From: Candidatus Multivoradales bacterium
GTDB taxonomy: Bacteria > Acidobacteriota > Thermoanaerobaculia > Multivoradales > JAHEKO01
DNA: 64,000 nucleotides
Direction: 5' to 3'
NCBI GenBank assembly: GCA_965223155.1
Contig: CBDCVR010000014.1
Span: forward strand, 384,001-448,000
The translations under genes and the position numbers were made by a program. The notes beneath the pieces were generated by a model. That model was not told where the DNA came from. It was given only the letters and a program-made list of their open reading frames with translations, and made no database searches. Shown one piece after another: positions 32,378 through 57,413 of this stretch (position 1 is the stretch's first letter; each line of letters starts with the position of its first letter).

Positions 32378-32437
32378 ATGAACGCCACCACTACGCTCCG
32401 AGAGGCCTGTATCCTGTCGAAAGAGTACGGTACCTAG
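32378..32437 (+). CDS. Candidate 19-aa small protein MNATTTLREACILSKEYGT
   Basis: GGAGGA RBS at 32368-32373. Upstream TTGACA (32311), 16-bp spacer, extended -10 TGATACCCT. Confidence 0.3.
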   Translation: MNATTTLREACILSKEYGT

Positions 32438-32469
32438 CCTGTAAGGCCAGGCGGCTTTGAGCCGACTGG

Positions 32470-33335: not shown

Positions 33336-33505
33336 TTCCCACTCCTTGAGTCAGCCTACTCGGCAGTTGACTCGGCCATGAATTCCTCCTCCACGAGAAA
33401 GCGTCGATGACAATTGTAGCCCACGCGTGGCTGCCCTCTAGCCTTCCAATACTTGGCCCGCCCTCCCGGCAGCAGTGGACCATCCCCAGAAGACAGCTGC
33501 ATCCG

Positions 33506-33552
33506 TTGACGGGACCGCCGTCTTTCGTTAGATTTGAACGATGGTTCAAATC
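33506..33552 (+). promoter_or_regulatory. Sigma70-type promoter with overlapping palindromic operator
   Basis: TTGACG (33506), 17 bp, TAGATT (33529). Perfect inverted repeat gatttgaac-gatg-gttcaaatc at 33531-33552. Confidence 0.7.
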
Positions 33553-34191
33553 GCTGCTGAGGCCGGCCTCCGAACCAGTTGCGTGGATGGCCCCCGCGCC
33601 CAGGACCGCCGCCGGGAGATTCTGCGCGCCGCGGCCAGGGTCTTCCGAAGCAGGGGCCTTCACGCCGCCGGCATGCGCGACATCGCGGCCGAAGCCGGCA
33701 TGCACGCCGGCAACCTGTACTACTACTTCCAGAGCAAGGAAGAACTCCTGGCCTATTGCCAGCGCGACGCCCTGGACGGCCTCGCCGAGTTGGTCGCCGA
33801 GGTGCGCGCCTCGGGGGCGCCGCCCGACGAACGGCTCCGAACCCTGATCGCCGGCCATGTCGAGCTTCTGAACGAGCGCACCCCCGGCTCGCTCGCCCAC
33901 CTCGAGGTCGAAGCCCTCTCCGAAGAGTGGCGCTCCGAGCTTCAGGCCCGCCGGGATCGATACGAACGTTCGATCCGAACGCTGGTCCGCGAGGCGATCG
34001 ACAGCGGCGCCTTCCGGCAGGTTGATCCGGCGGCGGCCGCCCTCGCAATCCTGGGCGCGGCCAACTGGACGGTCAAATGGTTCCGCGACTCGGGCTCGAA
34101 GTCGGCGCGCGAGGTGGGCCTGGAGTTCGCGGATCTCCTGGTCGGCGGCCTGGCCTCCGACACAGGAAACCTCGTGGAGGCCAAGCGATGA
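33541..34191 (+). CDS. TetR family regulator (KstR2/PaaR-like), probably leaderless
   Basis: HTH MRDIAAEAGMHAGNLYYYFQSKE and C-terminal NWTVKWF. Confidence 0.9.
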   Translation: MVQIAAEAGLRTSCVDGPRAQDRRREILRAAARVFRSRGLHAAGMRDIAAEAGMHAGNLYYYFQSKEELLAYCQRDALDGLAELVAEVRASGAPPDERLRTLIAGHVELLNERTPGSLAHLEVEALSEEWRSELQARRDRYERSIRTLVREAIDSGAFRQVDPAAAALAILGAANWTVKWFRDSGSKSAREVGLEFADLLVGGLASDTGNLVEAKR

Positions 34192-38491: not shown

Positions 38492-39556
38492 ATGACCTAT
38501 CCCGAACGCAACGGCAAGAAGGCGCTGATCACTGGCGTGACCGGACAGGACGGGTCCTACCTGGCCGAGTTCCTGCTCGCCAAGGGCTACGACGTCTGGG
38601 GCATCGTGCGCCGGTCCTCATCGCTCAACACCTCGCGCATCGACCACCTCTACGAGGATCCCCAGGCCAGCGACGTGCGGTTCCGGCTGGTGTTCGGTGA
38701 CTTGAATGACGCCTCGTCGCTCAACCAGATCCTGAAGACCGTTCGACCGGACGAGATCTACAACCTGGGCGCCCAATCCCACGTCAAGGTCTCGTTCGAC
38801 ATCCCGGAATACACCGCCGAGGTAACCGGCGTGGGCGTGGTGCGGCTGTTGGAAGGCATGCGCGAGCTGGATCTCAAGGCGCGCTTCTATCAAGCCTCCT
38901 CCTCGGAGATGTTCGGCAAAGTCGCCGAGACGCCCCAGAATGAGACCACGCCGTTTCACCCGCAGAGCCCGTACGCGGCCGCCAAGGTCTTCGCCTACCA
39001 CATCGTGCGGAACTATCGGGAAGCCTACGGCATGTTCGGGGTCAACGGCATACTCTTCAACCACGAGTCGCCCCGACGAGGCGAAACGTTCGTGACCCGG
39101 AAGATCACCCTGGCGGCCGCCAACATCAAGCACGGCAGCCAGGACTGCCTCTACCTGGGCAATCTGGACGCCAAGCGCGATTGGGGCTTCGCCGGCGACT
39201 ACGTCGACGCTATGTGGCGCATGCTCCAGTGCGACGAGCCTCGGGACTTCGTCGTCGCCACCGGCGAGACCCATACCGTACGCGAGTTCTGTGAGAAGGC
39301 CTTCGCCCGCGTCGACCTGCCGCTCAACTGGGAGGGCGAGGGGCTGCACGAGCGCGGTATCGACCCGGAGGGCCGGACCCTTGTGCAGATCGATCCCCGC
39401 TACTTCCGTCCAGCCGAAGTGGACCTGCTGCTCGGCGACGCGAGCCTCGCCCACGAGGTCCTGGAGTGGTCCCCGCAGGTGACCTTCGAGGGACTGGTCA
39501 ACCTGATGGTTGACGCCGATCTTGAGCTGGTCCAGTCAACGGCCGGCAGCGGCTAG
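38492..39556 (+). CDS. gmd: GDP-mannose 4,6-dehydratase
   Basis: [37 protein letters not shown]. Confidence 0.97.
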
Positions 39557-42561: not shown

Positions 42562-42766
42562 GCCGTCCTCGAGACGGCCGCTCACGATCGATAGTCGGCG
42601 ACTAGCTGCATGCGCCAGCTTCGTAGGCTCGAAGCGATCGTGTGGAAGAGTGCGTGGTAATGATGACGCTCGACTTGAAAACTCGCTGGAATGGGCGGCA
42701 AGCCACCGACAAGCTCGGCCTCTTGCACTGCCCGCAACACGGTGACGAAGCGTAGCACAAGAGACC
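42562..42766. ncRNA. Candidate structured RNA upstream of infC
   Basis: Hairpins at 42717-42766 and 42562-42578, plus a long rod with internal bubble at 42594-42710. Confidence 0.35.
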
Positions 42767-42789
42767 GCTGTGCTAGCCTGCCGCACTTC

Positions 42790-43851
42790 ATGAAGCGTGC
42801 CGCCAGCGCCCTGCCGCCGATCCGCTTCGAGCCCGTCCTCAAGGACTATCTCTGGGGCGGTACCGCTCTGCGCGACCTTTTCGGCCGGGAGCTTCCGAGT
42901 GCGACCGCGGCCGAGAGCTGGGAGGTGTCGGATCACCCCCACGGCCCCACCCCGGTGCGCGAAGGCGAGCTTCAAGGGGCGACCCTGAATGAGCTCATCG
43001 CGGAGCACGGCACCGAGCTCCTGGGCACGCGCTACGTCGACGCGGCCGCGGCCGGGCGCTTCCCGCTCTTGATCAAGATCCTGGACGCGCGCCGCTGGCT
43101 GTCGGTCCAGGTCCATCCCGGAGACGCCTACGCCCGCGAGCGCGAGGGAGATTCCGGCAAGACCGAGATGTGGATCGTGCTCGACGCCGACCCGGAAGCC
43201 GAGATCATCCTGGGTTTTGCGGAAGCGCTCACCGCCGGCGAATTCAACGAAGCCGTCGCCGCCGATCGCCTGGACGAGGTTCTGCAGCGGCTGCCGGCCA
43301 GGGCCGGAGACGCCTTCTTCGTTCGCTCCGGCTTGATCCATGCGATCGGGCCGGGTCTGGTCATCGCCGAGATCCAGCAATCGAGCGACACCACCTACCG
43401 GGTCCACGACTGGGGCCGTCACGACCGGGACGGCCGGCCGCGCGAGCTCCACTTGCAGCAGGCTCGAGACGTGCTGGACTTCTCCGCCATCCGGCCGGCG
43501 GCCGTGTCTCCGGAGCCGCTCGACTTGCCAGGCGGCGAACTCCTGGTGGATTGTCCCGACTTCCGGGTCGAGCGATACCGCCTGGGCGCCTCGCCCGAAG
43601 ACGAGCGGGCGGTGCTTGCCCGCCGCTACGAGGGTCGCTGCGCCGGCGCCACCTTCGAGATCTGGGGAGTGCTGGACGGCTCCGCGACCCTCGAGTGGGA
43701 CGGCGGCCGGCTCGACCTGGAAGCGGTGGACTGGGTGCTGCTACCGGCGACTCTCGGCGCCTTCGCGATTTCGGCCGAAGGTTCGGACACCGAGGATCGC
43801 GACAGCCCCGCAACGCTGGTTCGCGTCCTCAAGCCCGACGAATCGGGCTAG
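42790..43851 (+). CDS. manA: Type I mannose-6-phosphate isomerase
   Basis: YLWGG, ESWE, LSVQVHP, GKTEMW, HAIG, EIQQSSDTTYR. Confidence 0.9.
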   Translation: MKRAASALPPIRFEPVLKDYLWGGTALRDLFGRELPSATAAESWEVSDHPHGPTPVREGELQGATLNELIAEHGTELLGTRYVDAAAAGRFPLLIKILDARRWLSVQVHPGDAYAREREGDSGKTEMWIVLDADPEAEIILGFAEALTAGEFNEAVAADRLDEVLQRLPARAGDAFFVRSGLIHAIGPGLVIAEIQQSSDTTYRVHDWGRHDRDGRPRELHLQQARDVLDFSAIRPAAVSPEPLDLPGGELLVDCPDFRVERYRLGASPEDERAVLARRYEGRCAGATFEIWGVLDGSATLEWDGGRLDLEAVDWVLLPATLGAFAISAEGSDTEDRDSPATLVRVLKPDESG

Positions 43852-43964: not shown

Positions 43965-44873
43965 GTGACCCAGCTGGCCGACGTGATTCTCTACTACCAT
44001 CGCCCTTCCTTCTTCTTGGACCCGGATTGGTCGCCGGTCCCAACCGGCAGGCGTTGCCGCTACACCGGAGACAAGGCGAGGTTCTTCGAGGCAAAAGCCG
44101 TCCTGTTCGACATCCCGACGCTGACGAGCGAGGAGACCGAGCACCTCGCCAAGATTCGGCTGGCCAAGCCCGAGGGACAGATCTGGGTCGCCTTCTCGCA
44201 AGAGAGCGACCAGTGCTTCCCGCTGCTGAACGACCCGGGTTTCATGGCCCTCTTCGACCTGGAGATGTCGTATCGGCAGACTGCCCAAGTCTGGACACCG
44301 TACGTCAACCAAGAGGTCGCGGCGAGAATCTCCTCCGCCCCGGTACTGCCCAAGCGCCATCTGTGTGCGGCCTTCATTTCCAGTCGAGTCAACCTGAGCC
44401 GGCGTCTCGAACTGCTGGAAGGGCTGATGCAGCACCTACCCATTCACTCGTTCGGCAGCCAACTGCAGAACTCCATCTTGGAAGAGGACCAGGGCAACCC
44501 CCAGTACTCGCAGGCCCGCTACCAGACCAAGCTCCGGACCCTCAGACGCTACCGATACACCATCGCCTTCGAAAACAGCTTGAGCGACGACTACGTCACC
44601 GAGAAGTTCTTCCACCCGCTCATGGCCGGCTCGATCCCCGTCTATCTCGGCGCGTCCAACGTAGCCGACTATGCGCCGGGGAAAGACGCCTTCATCAACG
44701 CAGCGAATTTTCCCCATCCCCGGGAACTCGCCGAGTTCCTACTGGAAGCCGAGGACGCCAAGTACCAGGAGTGGCGAAGCCGGCCCTTGGAGCAGTCCTT
44801 TCTCGACCTCGTGTCTCGAACCACCCAGGAGCCGTTCGACGAACTCTGCGATCTGGTGTTCGGCCGAAAGTAA
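43965..44873 (+). CDS. GT10 alpha-1,3/4-fucosyltransferase
   Basis: YRYTIAFENSLSDDYVTEKF...GSIPVYLG FucT signature. Confidence 0.88.
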   Translation: MTQLADVILYYHRPSFFLDPDWSPVPTGRRCRYTGDKARFFEAKAVLFDIPTLTSEETEHLAKIRLAKPEGQIWVAFSQESDQCFPLLNDPGFMALFDLEMSYRQTAQVWTPYVNQEVAARISSAPVLPKRHLCAAFISSRVNLSRRLELLEGLMQHLPIHSFGSQLQNSILEEDQGNPQYSQARYQTKLRTLRRYRYTIAFENSLSDDYVTEKFFHPLMAGSIPVYLGASNVADYAPGKDAFINAANFPHPRELAEFLLEAEDAKYQEWRSRPLEQSFLDLVSRTTQEPFDELCDLVFGRK

Positions 44874-44917
44874 CCGCGTCCGGCTGGCTCGAAGAGCTCG
44901 AGGCGCGCGCGCAAAGC

Positions 44918-46030
44918 CTATCGGCCCGGCCTGTTGCCAGCGGCACCGGCCTCGGCCAGGACTCGCTTGGCCCGGATTTCAACATTACCCGGGTTCGCGG
45001 CTTCGGCCTTCCGCAACCAGGACAGAGCTCGGCTCCAAGCGCCTTCGACCAAGAAGGTAGCGCCGTAGAGACCCCAGGCAAATTCCCCAAATAGCCTCTT
45101 GTCGTACCCCAGGCCGTGAACGGCCAGGCGCGGGACCTCTTCCGCCAGGAGTTGGTCCAGGAAGAATCGAGCCGCCGTCTGCCGGCCTTCCTCGGAGGCC
45201 AGGCGCGCACCCCACCAAAGCAGCAGGGGATCGCAAGGCGCTCGGTCCCAGCCTTCCCGCCAAAGGTCCGCGGCATCCACCAGTCGCGGACCCTCGGCGG
45301 AGAAGTGCAGATCCAGGAGATCCCCGAAGAGCAAGGCGTCCCCAGCCCGAACCGGCCTTGCCCGCAGGGCCTCCAACCCGCGCCGCCAGGCCGTTTCGCC
45401 TTCGGAATAGGCACCCAGTCCGACTCTGGCCTCCCCCAACGCGTGCCAAAGATAGACGCGCTCGGGATCCAGCTCTACGGCCTGGAGCAGCATCGGCAGG
45501 TTGCGCTCGTGCTTGGCCCGCAGGTCCCCTTCGTACCCGAGGTGCTGGATCGCCAGCGGGACGGGACGACAGCCGAGCTCCCCCGCGGCCATAATCCGCT
45601 CGAGGTCCGGAACCACGGTCTCATGAATGGGACTTCGGAACCGAAGGTCGTCTCGATTGCGAAACAGTCGGAACTCGAGATACGGAGTGAGTCGACTGGA
45701 GGCGGAGAATTCCACCAGGCCGGCGATAAGCGCGCGGTCGGCGAGAACCGGAGCCAGCTCACCGCACCGAATCACCCGCTCATCGGCGTCGAGGTAGAGG
45801 ATCCAATCCTCGGCAGCCTCGTCCAAACCCAGGTTCCGCGGCTTGGAGAAGTCATTCCGCCAGGGCTCGTGCACGACCCGGGCCCCGTGCTCCGCCGCGA
45901 CCTCCACGGAGCGGTCCCGCGAACCGGTATCTACGACGACGATCTCGTTGACAAGCTCCGCAACGGAGCGCAGGCACGCGGCAAGGTGCGCCTCCTCATC
46001 GCGAACGATGAGGACGGCGGAGATCCCCAA
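44918..46030 (-). CDS. GT2 glycosyltransferase with TPR repeats (SunS-like architecture)
   Basis: IVRDEE, VDTGSRD, DFSKPRN, LDADE, IHE, HLGY motifs and a C-terminal TPR-like region. Confidence 0.88.
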   Translation of the reverse strand: MGISAVLIVRDEEAHLAACLRSVAELVNEIVVVDTGSRDRSVEVAAEHGARVVHEPWRNDFSKPRNLGLDEAAEDWILYLDADERVIRCGELAPVLADRALIAGLVEFSASSRLTPYLEFRLFRNRDDLRFRSPIHETVVPDLERIMAAGELGCRPVPLAIQHLGYEGDLRAKHERNLPMLLQAVELDPERVYLWHALGEARVGLGAYSEGETAWRRGLEALRARPVRAGDALLFGDLLDLHFSAEGPRLVDAADLWREGWDRAPCDPLLLWWGARLASEEGRQTAARFFLDQLLAEEVPRLAVHGLGYDKRLFGEFAWGLYGATFLVEGAWSRALSWLRKAEAANPGNVEIRAKRVLAEAGAAGNRPGR

Positions 46031-46042
46031 GCGACGGGGACT

Positions 46043-46195
46043 CTAGGTCGTGTTCGGCTGCGCCGAAGCCGGTCGCGCCATCAAGCCCGACATCGTGAAG
46101 GAGGCCACGAGCGGGGCTACGAAACCGGCCCCAATCGCCTTGCGAATGAAACCGCGCCGCGACTCATCAATGGATTCGAGGATCTTCTCTTGCAT
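46043..46195 (-). CDS. 50-aa putative RiPP precursor with twin-arginine leader
   Basis: Manual translation MQEKILESIDESRRGFIRKAIGAGFVAPLVASFTMSGLMARPASAQPNTT. GAAGGAGGAA RBS 5 nt before ATG. Stop is 12 nt before the GT2-TPR start. Confidence 0.75.
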   Translation of the reverse strand: MQEKILESIDESRRGFIRKAIGAGFVAPLVASFTMSGLMARPASAQPNTT

Positions 46196-46255
46196 CGAAC
46201 TTCCTCCTTCTCCGGCCTGTCAGTCGGCACTCCGGGATATCCCTAGATTGAGCGG

Positions 46256-46285
46256 AGTATCGCAAACCGGTTTCGCGGCTGTCAA
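46256..46285 (-). promoter_or_regulatory. Putative dedicated promoter of the precursor gene, with palindrome in the spacer
   Basis: Minus strand TTGACA-18 bp-GATACT, with AAACCGGTTT palindrome at 46264-46273. Confidence 0.4.
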
Positions 46286-46325
46286 TCAGACGGTCACCCG
46301 GACGGAGCTGAGCCTTTCCGTCGGC

Positions 46326-47162
46326 CTAGCCCCGGGAACTATGGCTTCGGGAGGCATTCTCGAGAGAAGCAATCGCCTCGTCGATTCGGCCCAGAGTCAA
46401 CCGCCAGCCACCGCTTGCCCCCAGGAAGCTCGCCGCGGCCAGCAGGCTCTTTCGCGTCTCGCCCCAACGAAAGGAGTTCCTGAGGAGGTTCTCGATCAAG
46501 TGATGGGGCGGCGCGGGCTCCAACGAGCTCTTACCACCGTGATTCGGGGTGATCGATACCAGCCGATCGATCGGAGCTCGCTTGAGCCTCCACTGAGACC
46601 CAATCCTTCGGGGCGGGACACTCCAGACAACCTCGTCGCCGGAGCCCATGCGGGGCTGGCCGGCCAGAATCGCTCCGAGCCCGGGCACGACCTCGTCGCT
46701 TCCCTTCTTGAGTTGCAGACAACGTGGGAACGCAATCACCTCGCCCCCGGAAAAGAGTGCCAGCTCGTCGCCCTCGACCTCATGCCCCGCACTCAGCAAC
46801 GCGGCGGCCAGCGTCGACTTTCCGGCGTGCTTTGCGCCCAAGATCAGCAGGCGGCAGCCCGCCACCGTTGTCGTCACCCCGTGAAAGACGATCCAACCGG
46901 CCAGAGCCAGGCGCTCGATGGCTTGGCAGTAGGCCCGCTGGTAGAGAATGAAGAGTGCATCCCCGGCCGAAGGGGCGGAATCGCAAAGGTCTCCGGCGCG
47001 CAGGATCTCGAACGGGCCGTCGCCTCGCACCTCGAATCGCAGCAGCTTCTTGGGCTCAAGTGGCTGCTCGGCGACGGTTGCGGCATAGGCCAGGAGCGAC
47101 TCGAGCTCGCGGCTGGCGGTCTCGATCTCAACCTGGCAGCCGAGCAGTTGAAACGAAATCAA
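46326..47162 (-). CDS. HPr kinase-related P-loop kinase
   Basis: FHGV...LILGAKHAGKSTLAAALLSAGHEVEGDE. Overlaps the PqqD stop codon. Confidence 0.8.
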   Translation of the reverse strand: MISFQLLGCQVEIETASRELESLLAYAATVAEQPLEPKKLLRFEVRGDGPFEILRAGDLCDSAPSAGDALFILYQRAYCQAIERLALAGWIVFHGVTTTVAGCRLLILGAKHAGKSTLAAALLSAGHEVEGDELALFSGGEVIAFPRCLQLKKGSDEVVPGLGAILAGQPRMGSGDEVVWSVPPRRIGSQWRLKRAPIDRLVSITPNHGGKSSLEPAPPHHLIENLLRNSFRWGETRKSLLAAASFLGASGGWRLTLGRIDEAIASLENASRSHSSRG

Positions 47163-47458
47163 TCGGTTTCGGCCGGAACTTCGGACTCGACGGCGACCAG
47201 AATACTCTCGTCCATGAGCTGCTGGACTCCCGCACGGACCTCCTCGACCGGCGTCGCGTCCAACTGAAACAGGTCGGCGACGAGCTTAGGCAGGTCCGAG
47301 GTCGCGCGGGTTCCGTCGCACAGTTCGAAGAGGACCGCCGCGGTCTGGTTCAAGTGGTGAACCCGCTGCGTCTCCGGGAAGAAGATCACCAAGCCATCCT
47401 GGGCGTCATGCACCTCGATACCGTCGCAGCGGCGAAGAAACTCGGGGACGGCTGTCAT
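47159..47458 (-). CDS. PqqD-family RiPP recognition element (stand-alone)
   Basis: VHHLNQTAAVLFELCDG...EEVRAGVQQLMDESIL, a typical PqqD winged-helix pattern; 99 aa. Confidence 0.85.
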   Translation of the reverse strand: MTAVPEFLRRCDGIEVHDAQDGLVIFFPETQRVHHLNQTAAVLFELCDGTRATSDLPKLVADLFQLDATPVEEVRAGVQQLMDESILVAVESEVPAETD

Positions 47459-47471
47459 GCGTCTGCCGATC

Positions 47472-48758
47472 CTAGCACCCAGGCAAGGTGGTTCCCGCTC
47501 GGGCGGCAGCCACCACGGCGGCCAGCTTTTCGCTCACGACCGAGCGCTCGTGGTGGGCTCGAACCCAGCGAAGCGCTCGCTCCGCCTGACGCCGAGCCCC
47601 GTCGCCGCCGGCGATCAGCTCACCGGCGGCGCGCGCCAGGTCCTCGCTGGTAGCGCCGACCCGCGCAAACCGCCGGCCCGCCGGTCCGAGCCCAGCCGAG
47701 CCCTCGGGAGTGGTCACCACGGGAACACCCCAGGCGAAGGCCTCGAGAATCTTGACGTGACTCCCGCCGCCTGCTCGGGTGGGCACTACCGTCGCCGAAG
47801 CCCGTCGGTAGAAGGGAGCGAGATCAGCTACCCAGCCATGCGTCGAGACGCCAGGCGTTCGCGCCAACCGCTCGAGAGCTGCGCGCGGGCCCTTCCCCAC
47901 CAGGTCCACTTGGGTTTCCGGATGGTCCGCGCGAACCATCGGCAAGACAGCGTGGACGAGCCGCTCAGCCGCGTCCAGGTTTGGAAGGTAGTGGAAGTTG
48001 CCGAGCAGAAGCAGATTCTTACCACCCGGCGCACCCGGGTTCTGACTGTCGGCCGGTGGTATCGCGACCGCGTTTTCGATGGCTTCGACCGACTCCAGCC
48101 CGTGTCGGCTTGCGAGGCTCAGCGCGTCCCGTTCGCTAGCGGCAAGGACGCGATCGAACCACGGCAGCACCGCCGAGCCGAAATGTAGATAGGCTGCAGC
48201 GTCCGCGTCCAAGGACCCGGCAAGATCGTCTTCCGAGCGGTCTCTCGAGATGGCTGCAAGGCTCCGCAGGGTCGCGACGTCGTCGTCGTCGGCATCCAAG
48301 ATCCACACCGACGGCCCAGAATGCCGCTGCCGATCGGCCGCCGTGAACCCATCCAGCCCGACCAGCATGCCCGCGAGGTACAGCCTCAACACGTAGAGCG
48401 TGTCGAACCGGCGACCCAGCCGCTCGTCAATGGCGGCGCCCAGCTCCGGTGTGGCGCCTCTCGCCAACTCCGGCAGGGCGCCACAGCGTTCCAACAGCTC
48501 ACGGCTCGCCGGCCGCTCGAGCCAGGCGCGCACCGCTTCTCTGCCGGTCATGGGCTCGAACATCTCGACCCGATCGGCATATTCGGACAGCCAAGACGAG
48601 TCGAACCGATCCCGCCCGGGCTCGGCGACCGGGACGATACCGACCGTCAGACGGTGGGAGCGTGCCAGAGCCACCACGGCCAGAGCCGCCCGCATCGCCA
48701 ATCCGTTGCCGGAGAGGGCCGGGGTGATCGGGGTAAGCAGCAGCCCGCGCGGTGCTAT
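47472..48758 (-). CDS. GT4 glycosyltransferase (start at ATA 48758 or TTG 48701)
   Basis: LGNFHYLPNLDA, GGGSHVKILEAFAWGVPVVTT. Conserved-looking LLLTPITPALSGNGLAMR lies upstream of the ORF-track start. Confidence 0.82.
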   Translation of the reverse strand: MAPRGLLLTPITPALSGNGLAMRAALAVVALARSHRLTVGIVPVAEPGRDRFDSSWLSEYADRVEMFEPMTGREAVRAWLERPASRELLERCGALPELARGATPELGAAIDERLGRRFDTLYVLRLYLAGMLVGLDGFTAADRQRHSGPSVWILDADDDDVATLRSLAAISRDRSEDDLAGSLDADAAAYLHFGSAVLPWFDRVLAASERDALSLASRHGLESVEAIENAVAIPPADSQNPGAPGGKNLLLLGNFHYLPNLDAAERLVHAVLPMVRADHPETQVDLVGKGPRAALERLARTPGVSTHGWVADLAPFYRRASATVVPTRAGGGSHVKILEAFAWGVPVVTTPEGSAGLGPAGRRFARVGATSEDLARAAGELIAGGDGARRQAERALRWVRAHHERSVVSEKLAAVVAAARAGTTLPGC

Positions 48759-48787
48759 TCTTTGCCTCCTCTCCGAGCCCCGGAACC

Positions 48788-49654
48788 GTGGTCAGAATTC
48801 CTCGCCGTGCGCACTTCGTCTTTGGATTGAAGCGATCTCGGTCCCCGTTCCACTTCCTCCATTATGTTGCCATCGAATCCTGCCGGCAGGTGTTGCGACC
48901 GAACGAGATCTTCTTTCATTACCATCACCTGCCCTTCGGCGAGTTCTGGGACCTGGTTCGTCCCCATCTACACTTGCACAGGGTCCCTCTGGTCGATGAG
49001 GTCCTGGAAACAAACTACGACGAGCGGCTGGTGCCACCCGAGTATCGATACGCCCACCACGCAGATTTCGTCCGCTTGGACGCCTTGATCGAGCACGGCG
49101 GGGTTTACGCCGACATCGATACGGTCTTCGTCAACCCGTTCCCTGAGTCTCTATTCGAGGGGTCTTTCGTGATCGGCCGGGAGCGGCCGGTCCCGGACGA
49201 ACGCACCGGTGAGCTCAAGCCGTCGTTGTGCAATGCCCTGCTGATGGCCGAACCGGGCAGCAAGTTCGCGATCGAATGGCGACGCCGCATGGCCGGCGCT
49301 CTCAACGGCACCTGGAACAACCACGCATGCTTCTTGCCGGAGCGGCTGAGTCGCGAAATGCCTGGCGAGTTGGACGTCGAGCCCGAGGAATCCTTCTTCC
49401 CCGTGCCCTGCACGCAGGAGGGCCTCGAGCGCTTGCTCGAGGGCGGCTGGATCGAACTCGACCATAGCTACTCCGTCCATCTGTGGAGCCATGTCTGGTG
49501 GGATGCCGAGCGCCTGGACTTCAGCCCTCGGCACAGCGGAGACTTCACGTACCAGGCCGTGCGTGAAGGCGGCGGCGGGAGTGCGCTCGAGCGCTTGGCG
49601 CACGCCTACCTTCCGGACCTGGAGGTAGACGACCTGGGACCATCCGTCAGATGA
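48788..49654 (+). CDS. GT32-like DXD glycosyltransferase
   Basis: IPRRAHFVF, ADFVRLDALIEHGGVYADID, VHLW. Confidence 0.82.
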   Translation: MVRIPRRAHFVFGLKRSRSPFHFLHYVAIESCRQVLRPNEIFFHYHHLPFGEFWDLVRPHLHLHRVPLVDEVLETNYDERLVPPEYRYAHHADFVRLDALIEHGGVYADIDTVFVNPFPESLFEGSFVIGRERPVPDERTGELKPSLCNALLMAEPGSKFAIEWRRRMAGALNGTWNNHACFLPERLSREMPGELDVEPEESFFPVPCTQEGLERLLEGGWIELDHSYSVHLWSHVWWDAERLDFSPRHSGDFTYQAVREGGGGSALERLAHAYLPDLEVDDLGPSVR

Positions 49655-50859
49655 CGGACGCCTTCGGGCTCAAGCTCGTGACGACGACGCCCGGGGGAGG
49701 GTACGGCGATGCCGCCCTCGAATACCTTCGCGGCCTGACCGATCTGGGAATTCCGGTCACCTGGCAGGTAGTGCGGGACGGGCATTGGGGGGCCCCGGCG
49801 AGACGAGTCGACTTGCCGTTCGACCTTCGGCGGAACTCCGCCCGGCTCGCATCGCTCTTCGACCGTTCTATTCCCCACGACACCTTCTTGCTTTGTATCC
49901 CTCCGCCGGCCTGGCATCTACGTTGGCTCCAGCAGGAGGAGCACACGACGCCCTTTGCTGGCGCCACCTGGGAGGCGGATCGCCTGCCGGCGAGTTGGCC
50001 GCCAGTGCTCAACCACTTCAGCACCGTCGTCGTACCTTCCGAGTTCAACCGCTCGGTGTTCGTCGCCAGTGGCGTGCGAGTTCCCGTCGAAGTCGTCCCC
50101 TATTGCGCCCGCGAGGTCCAGCCCGTGCCGGGAGGCCCACCCTGGGGCAGGGTCGCGGACGACGACTTCGTCTTCTACACCCTGGGTTCCTGGACCGCCC
50201 GCAAGGCTATCGAGGAAACGATTCGCGCCTACCTCGGAACGTTCACCGGCGACGATAGGGTCGCGCTCATCGTCAAGACGGGGGCCATCGACTGGATCGC
50301 GATCAAAGGCATGACCGTGGAGGAGAGAACCGAAGGGCCACCCCACCTGGGCACGAGTTGGTGGCAGCTCGCCCAGATCGTGGGCGAGTACGAGAATCCG
50401 GCCAAGATTCACCTCGTCGCCGACAGGTTGCCTCTACGAGAAATCGATCGTCTTCATACCCGGGGGGACTGCTTTGTCTCCTTAACACGCGGCGAGGGTT
50501 GGGGCCTAGGACCCTTCGACGCCGGTCTTTTCGGCAATCCGTCGATCGTGACCGGATGGGGTGGGCAGCTCGACTTCCTGGGGAGCGACTACCCGTTTCT
50601 CGTTGACTACGAGCTCGAATCGACGGCCGACTCTCCCGCGAACGGTTACCTCGATCCACCGCGTCAGATCCGCTGGGCGAAGCCGGACGTCGGGCAGGCC
50701 AGCCGGCTCATGCGTCGGGTCTTCGACGAGCGCCGGCAGGCACGGGAGCTGGGCGCCGAGCTCGGCCGGCGGCTCCGGTCCCGCTACCGGCGGCAGACCG
50801 TCTGCCGCCGCTTGGCCGAGGTGATGAATCTCGCCGTCAGACAACCGGAGGCCCGGTGA
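49651..50859 (+). CDS. GT4-like glycosyltransferase
   Basis: GGYG, TWE, VPSEFN, RK, DCFVSLTRGEGWGL, VTGWGGQ. Confidence 0.82.
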   Translation: MTDAFGLKLVTTTPGGGYGDAALEYLRGLTDLGIPVTWQVVRDGHWGAPARRVDLPFDLRRNSARLASLFDRSIPHDTFLLCIPPPAWHLRWLQQEEHTTPFAGATWEADRLPASWPPVLNHFSTVVVPSEFNRSVFVASGVRVPVEVVPYCAREVQPVPGGPPWGRVADDDFVFYTLGSWTARKAIEETIRAYLGTFTGDDRVALIVKTGAIDWIAIKGMTVEERTEGPPHLGTSWWQLAQIVGEYENPAKIHLVADRLPLREIDRLHTRGDCFVSLTRGEGWGLGPFDAGLFGNPSIVTGWGGQLDFLGSDYPFLVDYELESTADSPANGYLDPPRQIRWAKPDVGQASRLMRRVFDERRQARELGAELGRRLRSRYRRQTVCRRLAEVMNLAVRQPEAR

Positions 50860-51650
50860 AGACCGTTCTGGTCAATTACGCAACGGGCCCGTTCGCCGGA
50901 TATAGGGCGCTGCTGACTCTGACCGGGCAGCGGGCCGGCTGCGACGATTGCTTGGAGTTCGGCCCCCAGGACCTGGACGCGGAGTTTCGTCGCAGGCACC
51001 GCGAGACCCTCGCCGCTCGCCGCGGCGCCGGCTACTTCCTATGGAAGCCCTACATCTTGGTCCGGGCCTTGCAACGCGTGGCACCCGGAGACGTCCTTTT
51101 CTATTGCGACGCCGGGATTCATTGCGTTCGACCGATCCAGCCGCTCCTCGACCTCCTCGAGGGCGGCTCTTCGGACCTCGTCATTCTGGACGGAGGCTTC
51201 CGCGAGTCACAATACACGAAACGGGATGCGTTCCTCCTGATGGGCTGTGACTCGAGCGAATTCGTCGAGACTCCCCAGAGCTTCGCCGGCGCGTTCTTGT
51301 TGCGCAAGACAGAGTGGGCCGAACGGTTTGCGCGCGAGTTTCTCGCCTATGCCTGCGATGACCGAGTCTTGACCGACCGAGCCAATGTGCTGGGAGAAGA
51401 CGACTACCCGGATTTCATCGAACATCGTCACGATCAATCGATTCTGAGCCTGCTGGCCAAGCGGTACGGCATCTCGTTCACCCCCAATCCGTTTCTGGGC
51501 CAGGGCCTAGTCGAAAGAACCGGCCCCCGCATTCTGAACCACACGCGCCAGGCCTACCCGCTCAAGGACGTGGTTCTCTACTTGCTGGCGCGCGGTGCGT
51601 TGCGGATCGAAGACCTCCCGAGCCTCGAGCGAGCGGTCGGCCATGAGTGA
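50856..51650 (+). CDS. Putative GT-A fold glycosyltransferase-like protein
   Basis: RGAGYFLWKPYI, YCDAG, HRHDQSILSLL; translationally coupled within the GT operon. Confidence 0.6.
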   Translation: MKTVLVNYATGPFAGYRALLTLTGQRAGCDDCLEFGPQDLDAEFRRRHRETLAARRGAGYFLWKPYILVRALQRVAPGDVLFYCDAGIHCVRPIQPLLDLLEGGSSDLVILDGGFRESQYTKRDAFLLMGCDSSEFVETPQSFAGAFLLRKTEWAERFAREFLAYACDDRVLTDRANVLGEDDYPDFIEHRHDQSILSLLAKRYGISFTPNPFLGQGLVERTGPRILNHTRQAYPLKDVVLYLLARGALRIEDLPSLERAVGHE

Positions 51651-51743
51651 TCATGGATCGGCAGTCGCCCTGAGAGAACCTTCCGAGCCGCCTTCCGCTG
51701 AGCTCCCGAGCCGGCTGGCCTCGGTCTCCTCCATGCTCTCTCG

Positions 51744-52952
51744 ATGCCCCGCCTCCTGAACCAAGACTCGAACGCCGCGGTCGAGTGGCTGGGGCGCGCC
51801 TGCGGACGGTTCTTGCAGGCGCGCGAAGGGGCGGCGCCACCCCTGGCTCTTGACGTTGGGGTCGACGCCCTGCAACCTCTAGCACCCGCGCACGGCCTCG
51901 AGCCGCTGCTGCATGGCTTGGTCGCGACCGGCGGCATCGCGCGCGAGACCGTTCCGGCCTCGCTCCGGGAGCGCTGGTTGGCGGACTATTGTCGAACGAC
52001 GGTGGCGAACCGGCGCGCGCTCTCGGAGCTGGAGCGCTTGCTGGACAGTTGCCGCCGGCAGTCCGTCGAGATACTCGTATTCAAGGGACTGGCACACGTC
52101 GCGGGGGTCTACCGGGATCCCGGCTTGCGGCCGATGGTGGACGTGGATCTGCTGTGCCGGCCAGCCGCTCTAGCGGCACTCGAACGGGCATTCGTCGAAG
52201 AGGGTTATGAGCCCGTCGACTGGTCGATCCATCACGCGACCTTCGCGACAAAGGCAGGTCTCCTACGGTTTGAGGTCCATCAGAGCCTCTGGGATTTGAT
52301 CGCAGAAGGTGGCCGTTTTCTCGATGAGGTCTGGCGGTCCCAGACGGTGGCCGAGGTGGACGGTTTTCGTTTCTGTGTTCCTTCGGTCGAGGTCAGCGTA
52401 GTCCTAGACACCGCCCATGCCCTGCAGCACGACCTCGGCCAGGGATTGCGGCAAGCCGTGGATCTCGTCGGCTCCCTGGCGACACCGGGCCTTTCGGTCC
52501 CCCGGCTGGACGCGTTGCTCGGCGAGACAGACCTAAAGCCGGAATTCGTCCGAGTCGCGGGTCTCTATCGCCAGTTTCTGGGCGACGGACTCTTCCCAGA
52601 GGCGCTCGCGATACCCGAGCCGCATCTCTCCGATCGAGAATTCGCGCAACAACGTTGGTCCAGCCTGGCCTTGGACTCCGGGGTTCGTTTCCTGGGAGAG
52701 CTCCGCGCCCGGACGGGCCCCGCCGGCAAGCTGAGACACCTGTGGCGTTTGCTGGTTCGGCCCACCGGCCTCGGCGGCATGGGCGGAATGGGCGGCAGGA
52801 AGATCAGGAATCTCGGCCGCTGGCGCCAGCACCTGGCCAACCTCGCGAAACGCGCTTGGCGCAAGAGCCTGGGCCGGTCTCGGAGCCGGAGCGCCCTGGT
52901 AGGCTCCTGGAAGGCCCAGGTCTACCGCCGACGCGGCCACTCTGGCAGATGA
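51744..52952 (+). CDS. Nucleotidyltransferase family protein (NTP_transf_5-like; start uncertain)
   Basis: FKGLAH..YRDPGLRPMVDVDLL and FEVH motifs. Confidence 0.8.
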   Translation: MPRLLNQDSNAAVEWLGRACGRFLQAREGAAPPLALDVGVDALQPLAPAHGLEPLLHGLVATGGIARETVPASLRERWLADYCRTTVANRRALSELERLLDSCRRQSVEILVFKGLAHVAGVYRDPGLRPMVDVDLLCRPAALAALERAFVEEGYEPVDWSIHHATFATKAGLLRFEVHQSLWDLIAEGGRFLDEVWRSQTVAEVDGFRFCVPSVEVSVVLDTAHALQHDLGQGLRQAVDLVGSLATPGLSVPRLDALLGETDLKPEFVRVAGLYRQFLGDGLFPEALAIPEPHLSDREFAQQRWSSLALDSGVRFLGELRARTGPAGKLRHLWRLLVRPTGLGGMGGMGGRKIRNLGRWRQHLANLAKRAWRKSLGRSRSRSALVGSWKAQVYRRRGHSGR

Positions 52953-53174
52953 TTCTGAGAGCCTCTCCGGAAGACCTGGGGGCCGGCGGTGGCGGCCTCC
53001 GGCGCCCATTCAGAGAGCCATCCAATCGGCGGCCGCGGCACGCCGCTCGCCCCCCATGCCAGACCGAATGCGGGGGCCTACTGGGGTTCCCTTTGGACCG
53101 GCACTTCGATATATTCCGCGCCGGCCGCGTTCCGCGGTCACACCCCCAAACATCAAGCAAGCGAGTCACGAACT

Positions 53175-54887
53175 ATGTCGAATGTTGCGACGCAGGACTT
53201 ACGTCCGCTTCTCGTCTCCCCCGATCAGGCCGAAGAGCTGAAATCCGAGGCAATACATCTCAAGTCCTGGGATCTGAACTTTCAGCAGATCTGGGACAGC
53301 GAGCTGCTCCTGAACGGAGCCTTCTCCCCTCTGGCCGGATACCACACCGAGGCCGACTATCGAGGCGTGCTGGACGGCATGCGCACCGCCGACGGAGCGC
53401 TCTGGCCGATGCCGATCACCCTCGACGTCACCGAAGAGTTCGCCGAAGGGCTGACCCAGGGCGAGCGCGTTGCCCTTCGCCACCCCGAAGGCATGGTCCT
53501 GGCGATCCTGACGGTCTCCGACATCTGGCGCCCGGACGCAGACGAGGAAGCCTCCAAGGTCTTCGGCACCACGAACCCGGACCATCCCGGGGTCTTTCAG
53601 CTCAAGCACGAGACCCATCCCGTGTACCTGGGCGGACGGCTCGAAGGCGTCGAGCTGCCTCCGCACCACACCTACCAGCGCCACCGGCACACGCCGGAGC
53701 AACTGCGGGCCGAGTTCGATCGGCTGGGCTGGAAGCGCATCGTGGCTTTCCAGACCCGGAATCCGATGCACCGCGCGCACGTCGAGCTGGTACAGCGCGC
53801 CGCGCTCGAAAACGACGCGAAGATCCTGATCCATCCGGTCGTCGGACGCACCAGCCCGGGCGACGTGGACTACTTTTCACGGGTGCGCTGCTACGAGGCG
53901 GTGGTCGACCAGCTGCCGCCGCAGGTTGCCAAGCTCAGCCTCTTGCCGCTGGCGATGCGCATGGGCGGTCCGCGCGAGGCACTCTGGCACGCCCTCATCC
54001 GGCGCAACTACGGCTGCACGCATTTCATCGTCGGACGCGACCACGCCGGTCCACGGGACCGGGACGGCAACTCGTTCTACGGCCCCTACGACGCCCAGGA
54101 GCTCGTCAAGCAACATGCCGACGAGACCGGCATCGAGCTGGTTCCCTTCCAGGAGGTCGTCTACTGCCAGGAGCGGGGCGAGTACATGGCCCGCTCGGAG
54201 GTCCCCGAGGACGCCACGATTCTGAATCTCTCGGGCACCGAGTTGCGCCGCCGGCTTCGCGAGGGCGCCGACATTCCCTCCTGGTTCTCGTTTCCGGAGG
54301 TCATCACCTCGTTGCGCCGCCGCTATCCGCCGCGCTCGCGCCAGGGCTACACCATCTTCTTTACCGGCCTTTCAGGGTCCGGCAAGTCCACGGTCGCCCA
54401 GATCCTGATCGCCAAGCTGATGGAGATCGACGATCGGCCGGTGACACTCCTGGACGGCGACATCGTGCGCAAGAACTTGTCGAGCGAGCTGGGCTTTTCG
54501 AAAGAGCACCGCGACCTCAACATCCAGCGCATCGGCTTCGTGGCCAGCGAGATCACCAAGAACCGAGGCGCCGCGGTATGCGCTCCAATCGCGCCCTACG
54601 AGAAGACTCGGCGCCAGGTCCGAGACCTGATCGAGCTCCACGGGGGCTTCGTCGAGGTCCACGTCTCGACACCGCTCGAGGTCTGTGAAGATCGCGACCG
54701 CAAGGGTCTGTACGCCAAGGCACGGGCCGGACTGATCAAGGAATTCACCGGCATCGATGACCCATACGAGGAGCCGGACACTCCCGAGGTCGTGATCGAC
54801 ACCTCGCTCCTGACCGCCGAACGCGCGGCTCTCAAGGTCGTCGACTTCCTGCGCCGGGAAGGCTTCCTCGAGCGCTCCCGCTCCTGA
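53175..54887 (+). CDS. sat/cysC: Bifunctional sulfate adenylyltransferase / adenylylsulfate kinase
   Basis: FQTRNPMHRAH, VGRDHAG, FTGLSGSGKST, LDGD, RDRKGLY. Confidence 0.95.
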   Translation: MSNVATQDLRPLLVSPDQAEELKSEAIHLKSWDLNFQQIWDSELLLNGAFSPLAGYHTEADYRGVLDGMRTADGALWPMPITLDVTEEFAEGLTQGERVALRHPEGMVLAILTVSDIWRPDADEEASKVFGTTNPDHPGVFQLKHETHPVYLGGRLEGVELPPHHTYQRHRHTPEQLRAEFDRLGWKRIVAFQTRNPMHRAHVELVQRAALENDAKILIHPVVGRTSPGDVDYFSRVRCYEAVVDQLPPQVAKLSLLPLAMRMGGPREALWHALIRRNYGCTHFIVGRDHAGPRDRDGNSFYGPYDAQELVKQHADETGIELVPFQEVVYCQERGEYMARSEVPEDATILNLSGTELRRRLREGADIPSWFSFPEVITSLRRRYPPRSRQGYTIFFTGLSGSGKSTVAQILIAKLMEIDDRPVTLLDGDIVRKNLSSELGFSKEHRDLNIQRIGFVASEITKNRGAAVCAPIAPYEKTRRQVRDLIELHGGFVEVHVSTPLEVCEDRDRKGLYAKARAGLIKEFTGIDDPYEEPDTPEVVIDTSLLTAERAALKVVDFLRREGFLERSRS

Positions 54888-54900
54888 CCCTTCCGACTCG

Positions 54901-55680
54901 ATGTACGAAGAGATCCTCGAGCGGATCGCGGAGTCGCTGGAAGCGGCACGCGAGGTCCTGGAGCAGTTCACGCCGGGCCGGATCGAAGCTCGGCACAAGG
55001 CCGGCGGTGATCCGGTCACTGAAGCCGACCTGGCGGTCAACGCCGTTCTGGAGCGCATCCTGCCCCGCTCCGGCGAGGCCTGGCTGTCCGAGGAAACCAA
55101 GGACGACCCGTCACGCCTCGAAGCCGAGCGCGTCTGGATCGTGGATCCGATCGACGGCACCAAGGAGTTTGTAACCGGGATTCCGGAGTGGTGCGTGTCG
55201 GTCGGCTACGTAGTCGGCGGCGAGGCTGTTGCCGGCGGCATTCTGAGTCCCTCGACCGACCAGTTGATCCTGGGCTCCCTGGAGTCGGGAGTGACCCTCA
55301 ACGGCGAACCGGTCCGGCCCCGGCCGACGAAAGACCTGGCCGACGCCGTGGTCCTCGCCAGCCGCAGCGAAATCCGGCGCGGCGAATGGGAGCAGTACGC
55401 GGAGAGCGCGTTCACCTTGCAGCCGATGGGCTCGGTGGCTTTCAAGATGGCCCTGGTCGCGGCCGGCGAGGTTGACGCCACCTGGACCCTGGTGCCCAAG
55501 AACGAATGGGACGTGGCGGCTTCCACGGCCCTGGTTCACGCCGCCGGCGGCAAGGTCTTCGTGCCGGGTGCCGGAGCGCCCAGCTTCAACCGGGCCGATC
55601 TGAAGTTTCCCGGCCTCGCCGCACTCGGGCCCGGCACCGAAGAGCTCTTCGGGGACGAGTCCTTCACTCTGCGCCGCTAG
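54901..55680 (+). CDS. cysQ: 3'(2'),5'-bisphosphate nucleotidase (CysQ/inositol monophosphatase family)
   Basis: DPVTEAD, SEE, VDPIDGT, EWDVAA; adjacent to sat/cysC. Confidence 0.85.
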   Translation: MYEEILERIAESLEAAREVLEQFTPGRIEARHKAGGDPVTEADLAVNAVLERILPRSGEAWLSEETKDDPSRLEAERVWIVDPIDGTKEFVTGIPEWCVSVGYVVGGEAVAGGILSPSTDQLILGSLESGVTLNGEPVRPRPTKDLADAVVLASRSEIRRGEWEQYAESAFTLQPMGSVAFKMALVAAGEVDATWTLVPKNEWDVAASTALVHAAGGKVFVPGAGAPSFNRADLKFPGLAALGPGTEELFGDESFTLRR

Positions 55681-56784: not shown

Positions 56785-57275
56785 CGCGCTGGATCCGTGG
56801 CCGTAGCTTCGCTGCCGGCGGCGCCGAACGCGGTCTCGATTCTGGCCGCCAGCTCGTCCCGCGCCACCCGAAAGGCTTCGAGACGCTCCTGCCGGTCCCC
56901 CTCGACGGCGGCGGGGTCGGCGATCGACCAGTGCAGCGAGCGCCGGGCGCTTGGAAACACCGGACAGGACTCGCGAGCGCCGTCACAGACGGTCACCACC
57001 GTCTCGATCGCCTCGTCCAGGAACCGCTCGTAGGTCTTGGAGGTCTGCTCCGAGATGTCGGCGCCCAGCTCGCGCAGGACCTCGATGGCTTCAGAACGAA
57101 CACGGGTGGCGAGGGTCCCGGCGCTGGCCACCTCCCGATGCGGATATTTGTGGCGGAACAGCCCTTCAGCCATCTGCGAGCGCGCGCTATTGTGGGTACA
57201 CAGAAACAGGATCTTGCCAGGCGTCAGGGGACCTCGACCTCCGTGGATCTTCCGGCTAGTAGACTTTCCGGCCAT
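56781..57275 (-). CDS. arsC: LMW-PTP-type arsenate reductase / phosphatase
   Basis: FLCTHNSARSQMAEG, VTVCD...CPVFP, WSIADP. Start uncertain. Confidence 0.85.
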   Translation of the reverse strand: MAGKSTSRKIHGGRGPLTPGKILFLCTHNSARSQMAEGLFRHKYPHREVASAGTLATRVRSEAIEVLRELGADISEQTSKTYERFLDEAIETVVTVCDGARESCPVFPSARRSLHWSIADPAAVEGDRQERLEAFRVARDELAARIETAFGAAGSEATATDPAR

Positions 57276-57413
57276 GCGCATTCTAGTCGACGGCCCTGGC
57301 GCGCGCCGGCCACGGCTCGGGCCCGCCCCGAGCCGGATCGGGCTCGACTTGATGCCAACCTTCAGAGCCCGCGCCTCGGCGGCGGCCCATGGCCCTCGGG
57401 AGGGGTCGGGCCG

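Follow-up and report, generated by a model that had tools for sequence, protein, structure and literature searches.

What is made by a block of ten genes in which a 50-residue peptide with a twin-arginine motif lies among a PqqD-type protein, an HprK-like kinase, a nucleotidyltransferase and six genes of glycosyltransferase (GT) type? The block covers positions 43965-52952 of a 64,000-nucleotide stretch, here called the window, of contig CBDCVR010000014.1 from Candidatus Multivoradales bacterium (Acidobacteriota). A sequence-only reading of the window had proposed an undescribed system of glycosylated RiPPs (peptides that the ribosome makes and that are modified after translation), in which the C-terminal Thr-Thr of the peptide is modified without any cyclase and synthesis of PAPS (3'-phosphoadenosine 5'-phosphosulfate) takes part. 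We consider it moderately probable that the ten genes form a horizontally acquired, self-contained cassette making a small linear ribosomal phospho- or glycopeptide, which would be exported by the twin-arginine translocation (Tat) system and trimmed by signal peptidase I. The peptide-centred, cyclase-free part of the earlier proposal holds, as is also suggested by the closest published family, the LPP clusters of Bacillota (Popov et al., Nat Commun 2026, published May 2026; PMC13381572), while the PAPS genes, the Thr-Thr and the word "undescribed" do not.

Conservation of the precursor peptide

Is the 50-residue open reading frame (ORF) a gene at all? A search of 5.8 billion proteins gave six homologues of the peptide at 63-65% identity, and fetched DNA yielded five more (loci L006-L010). 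The family thus has 12 sequences, the window copy and 11 homologues, from about eight distinct lineages whose loci have GC contents of 0.53-0.74. Codon differences among the six DNA copies number 22-31 at third positions against 4-17 at other positions. Because homologues exist and third-position changes dominate, we read the short ORF as a true conserved gene and not as a chance ORF. Its ATG is preceded by the sequence GGAGAAGGAGG. Four of the peptide homologues and the four closest kinase homologues (53-55% identity) come from contigs of equal size (4725, 5120, 6620 and 21606); judged by these sizes alone, they would share the same contigs. The sequence-only reading had proposed to look in homologous loci for a short syntenic RRxF ORF, and such an ORF is conserved in all five of the homologous loci fetched.

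The window copy has the twin-arginine motif SRRGF at residues 12-16, FVAPLV at residues 25-30, the conserved segment SFTMSGLMARPASA, and an AxA site that ends at A45 and is followed by the tail QPNTT. The same layout is kept in all 12 peptides. The twin-arginine motif reads [SED]RRxF[LIV][RQK][KNR], and the peptides have an uncharged stretch, 18-28 residues long, in which the highest 13-residue Kyte-Doolittle mean is 1.45-1.88. Inside this hydrophobic region, 12-13 residues past the first Arg, starts a motif [F/Y]xxPx[VIL], which was overlooked by the earlier reading. A near-invariant segment, A[ST]F[TSA]M[ST]GLMA-x-PA-x-A, ends in an AxA-type ([AG]xA) site. Finally there is N-x-[S/T], 35-37 residues past the first Arg, with 0-11 further residues behind it. 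It is this element, Asn with a hydroxyl residue two positions on, that is conserved, and not the C-terminal Thr-Thr that had been taken as the key feature.

Co-inheritance across loci

How tightly are the other genes tied to the peptide? The gene directly downstream of it encodes, in 6/6 loci, a GT2 enzyme with C-terminal tetratricopeptide repeats (GT2-TPR), and the kinase gene directly precedes it in 5/6. Three of the loci (L006, L008 and L009) are short metagenome contigs with the order kinase, peptide, GT2-TPR. The long loci are the window, L007 (an 826-kb metagenome contig) and L010 (a contig of a metagenome-assembled genome of Hyphomicrobiaceae), and all three have PqqD, the kinase, GT4, GT32, a second GT4 and the NTP_transf_5 nucleotidyltransferase; GT10 and a gene for a 264-residue protein are present in two of the three. 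The order in L010 is a partial NTP_transf_5, an epimerase, a second GT32, the 264-residue gene, GT10, GT4 and GT32, and it continues with the divergent run GT4, PqqD, kinase, peptide, GT2-TPR. Its NTP_transf_5 is a partial copy at the contig end with a sub-threshold match (9.1e-4), and the one in L007 matches PF14907 at 1.9e-29. PqqD orthologues adjoin the kinase in both L007 and L010.

Sequence identities to the window copies are highest for GT32, with 59% in L007 (1.1e-114) and 55% in L010 (2e-99). The first GT4 has orthologues at 39% in L007 and 33% in L010, and the second at 44% in L007, where it matches PF20706 at 3.1e-13, and 41% in L010. The L010 orthologues of GT10 and of the 264-residue protein have 32% (1.1e-40) and 45% (4.6e-71) identity, respectively. 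In L007 about 6 kb separate the peptide and its GT2-TPR neighbour from PqqD and the kinase. This locus further has a gene for an arylsulfotransferase (ASST)-like protein of 791 residues just upstream of the peptide (L007:261-2636) and, right behind GT2-TPR, three sulfotransferase genes of the PAPS type (L007:4285-6743).

The core set is therefore the peptide, GT2-TPR, PqqD, the kinase, GT4, GT32, GT4 and the nucleotidyltransferase, and GT2-TPR, found beside the peptide in 6/6 loci, is the gene most tightly tied to it. The sequence-only reading had named as a point of failure that the glycosyltransferases might not be co-inherited with PqqD and the kinase; they travel with both in L007 and L010. 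A metagenome scan gave at least four relatives among the 597 stretches listed, and a pattern scan of genome contigs gave one locus among 396 pattern matches.

Insertion in the chromosome

Where does the cassette begin and end? In a DNA search four congeners match the window up to the end of the phosphomannose isomerase (PMI) gene at about 43765 and again from about 53183, through sat/cysC, cysQ and beyond, with a gap between. The gene order in two of them (G002 and G003) is Zn-ribbon, infC, PMI, sat/cysC, cysQ, without GT10. Because PMI and sat/cysC are adjacent in the congeners, the ten genes from GT10 through the nucleotidyltransferase (43965-52952) are an insertion. The kinase had no match in 40 relatives at 1e-10 and none in 400 genomes of the class at 1e-35, and the 264-residue protein had none in 400 genomes of the phylum at 1e-6. 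The GC content of the island, 0.644-0.656, is slightly lower than the 0.666-0.685 of the left flank, and a filter of GC above 0.78 at third codon positions (GC3) is passed by two of the ten island genes and by most flanking genes. At the island ends, where direct repeats, an integrase and a tRNA were looked for, only short repeats at chance level were seen, and the tiled ORFs include no mobility gene. From these comparisons the island appears rare and horizontally acquired.

The insertion boundary changes the view on sulfation. Sat/cysC and cysQ, which had been counted as a PAPS part of the unit, are a conserved chromosomal flank with 76-77% DNA identity in the four congeners, in two of which (G002 and G003) they directly adjoin PMI. 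At least 10 sulfotransferase matches occur in the genome, none of them in the window, and the 264-residue protein looks GT-A-like rather than sulfotransferase-like, though weakly so. Since the PAPS genes belong to the flank and no sulfotransferase match lies in the window, sulfation was rejected as a function of the island in this genome. The product of the L007 lineage may be sulfated, perhaps also glycosylated in the periplasm. On the left side, genes for a GDP-mannose 4,6-dehydratase (38492-39556, plus strand) and a type-I PMI (42691-43851, plus strand) flank infC just before the insertion. The PMI is conserved in the congeners, and the two enzymes could supply GDP-fucose precursors to GT10.

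Could the island be an ordinary surface-polysaccharide locus, in which the glycosyltransferases make a side chain of lipopolysaccharide or exopolysaccharide, and the Tat-type peptide with the PqqD, kinase and nucleotidyltransferase genes is a regulatory or unrelated passenger module? The first GT4 does resemble glycosyltransferases of PEP-CTERM systems (103.9 bits against a cut-off of 316), the island lies between PMI/gmd and the PAPS genes, and LPP clusters too sit in capsule loci (PMC13381572). However, neither the window island nor L007 or L010 has a Wzx/Wzy, an ATP-binding cassette (ABC) exporter, a Wza or an initiating transferase, and one set of glycosyltransferases travels with peptide, PqqD and kinase across loci of GC 0.53-0.69. 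We regard a plain polysaccharide island as very improbable.

The leader as export signal and docking site

A Tat signal has the consensus S/T-R-R-x-F-L-K, a mildly hydrophobic h-region, a c-region that often has a basic residue, and AxA. All 12 peptides have the motif, an uncharged and moderately hydrophobic stretch and an AxA-type site. The closest named ESM Atlas clusters of the peptide are Tat-signal families (0.89-0.91), which is a lead only, and Pfam gave no match of the peptide at 0.01. The host genome encodes TatC and LpxC, and the host is therefore taken to be a diderm with a Tat system.

The same leader also looks like the ligand of a RiPP recognition element (RRE), the role expected for a stand-alone PqqD protein. 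The discrete RREs of lasso peptides and LPPs bind the motif [Y/W]xxPx[L/V/I/F/A] (PMC13381572). Because the Tat consensus and an RRE-docking motif coincide in it, the leader fits two readings at once. Co-folding of PqqD with the peptide, which the earlier reading had suggested as a check, passed, if weakly: the ipSAE values of three runs were 0.53, 0.54 and 0.53 against 0.00 for the best control. The runs had at least 94% of contacts in common, partner pLDDT was at least 67, and the verdict of the tool was "weak support". The alignments had 3 rows for PqqD and 11 for the peptide; a search for PqqD homologues returned the query alone. Of 157 solved complexes 116 reach the mark, as do 2 of 215 mismatched pairs; those that reach it with a value of 0.60 or under are only 18 of the 157 solved complexes and both of the mismatches. 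The pass may also reflect likeness to RRE-leader complexes solved in the PDB.

The kinase and the candidate peptide glycosyltransferase

PEP carboxykinases (PEPCK) and the C-terminal domains of HPr kinase/phosphorylase (HprK/P) share one fold class. The family profile of the island kinase matches the HprK/P structures 2qmh and 1jb1 at 4.4e-5. Its AF2 model (pLDDT 95.4) finds PEPCK and HprK/P C-domains in Foldseek with E values of 4.5e-7 to 1.8e-5, the TM score to the target being 0.51-0.56 for HprK/P, and its Walker A motif, GAKHAGKST, is conserved. By model and profile the kinase has an HprK/PEPCK fold. It is at most a distant relative of the HPr-rel-A system, whose models it and PqqD score well short of (37.4 bits against 200 for the kinase, TIGR04352; 17.1 against 35 for PqqD, TIGR04353). 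Four paralogous kinase loci of the same genome (L002-L005) have only the P-loop region in common with the island kinase and carry no copy of the peptide.

Then which enzyme acts on the peptide first? One answer would be GT2-TPR itself, as the primary and direct peptide glycosyltransferase, O-linked on Ser/Thr or N-linked on Asn, with the kinase and NTP_transf_5 coming in afterwards, on the sugar or a different residue, instead of priming the peptide with phosphate. The solved proteins nearest to GT2-TPR in sequence are GmaR (22ao, 2.4e-18), SunS (7msp, 6.2e-13) and 7msk (2.2e-10), enzymes that glycosylate proteins or peptides, which GmaR and SunS do directly. The gene adjoins the peptide in every locus, even in L007 where PqqD and the kinase are some 6 kb off, and the invariant Asn two residues before Ser/Thr resembles a glycosylation sequon. 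On the other hand, GT2-TPR is far below the cut-off of the SunS equivalog TIGR04195 (51.8 bits against 350), the peptide is free of Cys and lacks a double-glycine leader, and no C39 transporter is present. The overlap between the PqqD and kinase genes hints at an RRE in the service of the kinase, and LPP modification starts with the kinase step (PMC13381572). Taken together, direct glycosylation as the primary step seems unlikely to us. The N-linked version has a further point against it, as we know of no GT2-TPR enzyme that N-glycosylates Asn.

A proposed route from precursor to product

If the kinase acts first, a scenario for the whole cassette can be given, in which the order of steps is drawn by analogy with LPP and pseudomycoidin. 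Gene content, motifs, synteny and the insertion are observed; the chemistry, the modified residue, Tat export and cleavage are inferred. The precursor would be kept in the cytoplasm by the PqqD-type RRE, docked on [F/Y]xxPx[VIL] within the twin-arginine leader. The HprK-like kinase, to which the RRE would offer the short tail at the C-terminus, would phosphorylate a hydroxyl, most likely that of the Ser/Thr conserved in N-x-S/T (Thr50 of the window copy). A glycan might then be begun by NTP_transf_5 and GT2-TPR, either on this phosphate or straight on the peptide, and be lengthened by the soluble GT4, GT32, GT4, GT-A-like and GT10 enzymes, perhaps with fucose. Since the cassette has no exporter or peptidase, the finished conjugate would be handed, via its leader, to the host Tat translocase and signal peptidase I. 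A cut after A45 would set free, in the periplasm or further out, a glycopeptide some five residues long (QPNTT in the window copy).

Several observations weigh against this scenario. Curated Tat models match only below cut-off, in 8 of 11 peptides: the best E value is 0.025 for TIGR01409, where the window copy has 10.3 bits against 16.7, and 0.0017 for TIGR02811. The support from co-folding is weak, and the FxxP segment is a putative docking site. In some peptides further residues follow the sequon Ser/Thr, whereas lasso kinases prefer a C-terminal Ser (PMC8498205). The most conserved stretch of the peptide, SFTMSGLMARPASAQ, falls in the presumed leader; it is conserved beyond the needs of a signal-peptide c-region and may be a recognition or modification site of its own. 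In the one LPP reconstitution the NTP transferase LppN was inactive (PMC13381572), so that the role given to NTP_transf_5 has its precedent in pseudomycoidin alone. Finally, the kinase in L007 is followed by a membrane protein of GT-C type (DUF2142/PMT_2), an arrangement more in keeping with periplasmic glycosylation.

This last point leads to a different scenario, in which Tat exports the peptide unmodified; signal-anchored or released, it would serve as an N-x-S/T acceptor that gets its glycan beyond the cytoplasm, out of a lipid-linked donor made by the glycosyltransferases. The Tat-type leader and the N-x-S/T sequon would fit it, as would the membrane protein beside the L007 kinase, and the window too has a polytopic membrane protein, unclassified, 1.2 kb past cysQ. 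But the GT-C gene is outside the inserted block, the membrane proteins of L007 and the window are unrelated, and the region of the latter has DNA matches in congeners without the island. No locus has a priming phosphoglycosyl transferase, a flippase or an STT3/PglB-type enzyme, and PqqD, the kinase and NTP_transf_5, all cytoplasmic, would be left without a role. A periplasmic acceptor is thus quite improbable. As to the window protein itself (56931-59699, plus strand), it has about 12-14 hydrophobic segments, no Pfam family and a weak match to the LIC_10190 family (0.0013), and its true start is probably well downstream of 56931. It was tried as a counterpart of the L007 GT-C protein and rejected, having no similarity to it and no family. 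Because its region has DNA matches in congeners, it is placed outside the island.

The cytoplasmic scenario has a stronger form, tentative and rather doubtful, in which the Tat signal is itself the RiPP leader. TorD/DmsD-type proteins act as Tat proofreading chaperones for redox enzymes. PqqD would do so here by holding the FxxP segment, and with it the precursor in the cytoplasm, while the kinase, the nucleotidyltransferase and six soluble glycosyltransferases make a phosphate-linked glycan on the five-residue tail; Tat would then export the conjugate, with signal peptidase I as leader peptidase. If this is true, a glycan would cross the inner membrane without lipid carrier or flippase, through a Tat pore that takes bulky folded cargo, and a mobile cassette of 9 kb would need only Tat and LepB from its host.

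Gene content and neighbourhood

The genes of the region are given in Table 1. Searches with Pfam and NCBIfam found every gene listed by the sequence-only reading in its place, and on the ORF map these ORFs tile 43965-55680 without gaps and with no room for a further gene. The searches gave no match to the domain of a lasso cyclase, a B2 peptidase, a radical SAM enzyme or a YcaO protein in the ORFs of 43965-55680, in agreement with the "no cyclase" claim. Nor was any ABC transporter, peptidase domain or membrane segment found in the island by Pfam, NCBIfam and hydropathy. As none of the ten island products has a 19-residue segment with a Kyte-Doolittle mean above 1.6, all are probably soluble.

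Table 1. Genes and a candidate promoter in the island and its right flank, in window coordinates
Feature	Position	Strand	Evidence and remarks
GT10-family (fucosyl)transferase	43965-44873	+	PF00852 4.4e-25, PF17039 3.4e-12; left-most island gene, convergent with the peptide operon
GT2 with C-terminal TPR repeats, candidate peptide glycosyltransferase	44918-46030	-	PF00535 3.2e-17 plus TPR matches
50-residue precursor peptide	46043-46195	-	translation MQEKILESIDESRRGFIRKAIGAGFVAPLVASFTMSGLMARPASAQPNTT
Candidate promoter, sigma-70-like consensus	46256-46285	-	TTGACA-18-GATACT with TG, 10/12 matches
HprK/PEPCK-fold P-loop kinase (HprK-like)	46326-47162	-	TIGR04352 1.4e-9, PF07475 1.3e-4, both below cut-off
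Stand-alone PqqD-family RRE	47159-47458	-	PF05402 4.9e-8, 33.6 bits vs cut-off 23.4; 4-nt overlap with kinase start
GT4 (GT-B) glycosyltransferase	47472-48701	-	PF13692 6.7e-21; first gene of the peptide operon
GT32-type (DXD sugar-binding region) glycosyltransferase	48752-49654	+	PF04488 4.1e-8; first gene of the divergent operon
Second GT4-like glycosyltransferase	49651-50859	+	sub-threshold GT4 matches only in the window copy
264-residue protein without family	50856-51650	+	no Pfam or NCBIfam match
NTP_transf_5 nucleotidyltransferase	51744-52952	+	PF14907 5.1e-35; right-most island gene
Sat/CysC fusion	52989-54887	+	NF004040 888 bits; conserved chromosomal flank
CysQ-like phosphatase	54901-55680	+	PF00459; conserved chromosomal flank

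The promoter consensus sits about 60 nt upstream of the peptide start, within the 130-bp gap after the kinase gene; between 43800 and 49000 two promoter-type sites were found against 0.3 expected from shuffles. The KG...DxD motif of NTP_transf_5 (K114, G115, D133, D135) is common to six relatives. The 264-residue protein gave a poor AF2 model (pLDDT 54.9) with weak Foldseek matches to CMP-KDO synthetase and LgtC (TM 0.3-0.41), and its closest named ESM Atlas cluster is Glyco_transf_34 (0.96); these are leads only, by which its fold is probably GT-A-like, of the nucleotide-sugar type.

The host genome (G000, 4.0 Mb) has 5 HprK-like kinase, 6 NTP_transf_5 and at least 10 sulfotransferase matches. 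On the contig of the window (C14), one sulfotransferase match (C14:358306-358908) is 2 kb from a paralogous kinase match (C14:356320-356556), about 28 kb before the window. Contig C7 has kinase and sulfotransferase matches (C7:664-3258) with the same scores and spacing as C14:356320-358908, and it probably duplicates that stretch or represents another assembly of it. Further along C14, at about 968.9-971.2 kb (L034:1327-3600, plus strand), a 758-residue ORF has NTP_transf_5 fused to a C-terminal P-loop segment (GEKGAGKST...) that resembles HprK-like kinases, with two sulfotransferase matches just downstream (C14:971507-973119). Such a fusion would tie nucleotidyltransferase and kinase functionally.

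Within the window, a protein with response-regulator, PAS, GGDEF and EAL domains (27272-30939, minus strand) adjoins a hybrid REC-PAS histidine kinase, a cyclic di-GMP pair about 13 kb from the island. A patch of low GC lies at 32001-34000 (0.599 against about 0.67), with a 229-residue ORF without family (32646-33335, minus strand) between two TetR genes.

Significance

Why would such a cassette matter? Modification of linear peptides by an RRE-guided kinase and nucleotidyltransferase was shown in 2026, and in Bacillota only. The island would be a compact Gram-negative version of ten genes, without dedicated exporter or peptidase and with a predicted mature peptide of five residues, which makes it easier to work with. 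Modifications on so short a peptide should be read easily by mass spectrometry and could reveal what NTP_transf_5 and the glycosyltransferases build. If the Tat-leader reading holds, Tat joins the export routes of RiPPs and glycoconjugates, with a signal peptide doubling as an enzyme-recruitment tag. Such a tag might be portable, for glycosylation in the cytoplasm followed by export, and of interest for glyco-engineering.

Comparison with known systems

Is the system new? Searches of the literature open without subscription gave no account of a precursor with a Tat leader together with PqqD, kinase, nucleotidyltransferase and glycosyltransferases. To call the system undescribed is nevertheless too strong, as the LPP clusters are published, though from Bacillota only and with a different leader (PMC13381572).

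The LPP clusters (LppA/K/B/S/D/N) are the closest described system. They combine an RRE, an HprK-like kinase and an NTP transferase, which act on a linear peptide. Ser3 of the core is polyphosphorylated by the kinase, and a signal-peptidase-I-like enzyme removes the leader that the RRE presents to it. According to the report on them, the NTP transferase LppN was inactive in reconstitution and LPPs are restricted to Bacillota (PMC13381572). The island likewise encodes an RRE as a discrete protein, a kinase of the HprK-like type and a PF14907-type NTP transferase together, the kinase being assigned by model matches below cut-off plus the fold result. Both systems have an RRE motif of the [Y/W]xxPx[LVIFA] type in the leader and a leader cut of the type-I signal-peptidase kind, putative in the island, and both are set among glycosyltransferases with a patchy distribution like that of horizontal transfer. 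The island differs in that the SipW-like (archaeal-type) signal peptidase I is absent from its tiled ORFs and from L007 and L010, and that it has no MsbA-like ABC exporter. Its leader looks like a full twin-arginine signal (SRRxF, uncharged stretch, AxA). In place of the LPP consensus YxxPxVLxHQxIxFETxxS it keeps [F/Y]xxPx[VIL], the rest being A[ST]F[TSA]M[ST]GLMARPA[SA]AQ. Its core has 4-21 residues with N-x-S/T, and the position after AQ varies, while in LPP it is Ser3 of AQSNWK that is phosphorylated. It also has six GT-type genes co-inherited with the core genes, in an LpxC-bearing diderm host.

The phosphorylated lasso peptides offer a second comparison. In paeninodin (PadeK) and pseudomycoidin (PsmK/PsmN), the linear precursor receives a phosphate on a Ser hydroxyl from a homologue of HPr kinase; in pseudomycoidin this is the C-terminal Ser, and the nucleotidyltransferase puts one or two hexoses on the phosphate (PMC8498205). 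The pair of kinase and nucleotidyltransferase is common to both, and some lasso clusters have sulfotransferase genes, as in L007. The island lacks the Asn-synthetase-like cyclase, the transglutaminase-like B2 peptidase and the ABC exporter of paeninodin-type clusters; its candidate Ser/Thr is not always C-terminal, and it has several glycosyltransferases.

The glycocin S/O-glycosyltransferases SunS and ThuS, and the flagellin glycosyltransferase GmaR of Listeria, resemble GT2-TPR in joining a GT2 domain with TPR-like repeats and in being encoded next to their peptide or protein substrate. In contrast to glycocins, the island peptide has neither Cys nor a double-glycine leader, there is no C39-ABC exporter, the TIGR04195 score is 51.8 against 350 bits, and RRE, kinase and nucleotidyltransferase are present. 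DUF2282 precursors, which are served by DUF2063 RREs, have Sec signals and, according to PMC12710340, no specific RRE motif. They are alike in using a general export signal, so that host machinery replaces a dedicated transporter and peptidase; their modifying enzymes are unrelated, and the signal of the island is of Tat type and holds the RRE motif. Among these systems the island departs from LPP in three features, namely peptidase, exporter and leader consensus, and it would be a Gram-negative counterpart of the tailoring set known from LPPs and phosphoglycosylated lasso peptides.

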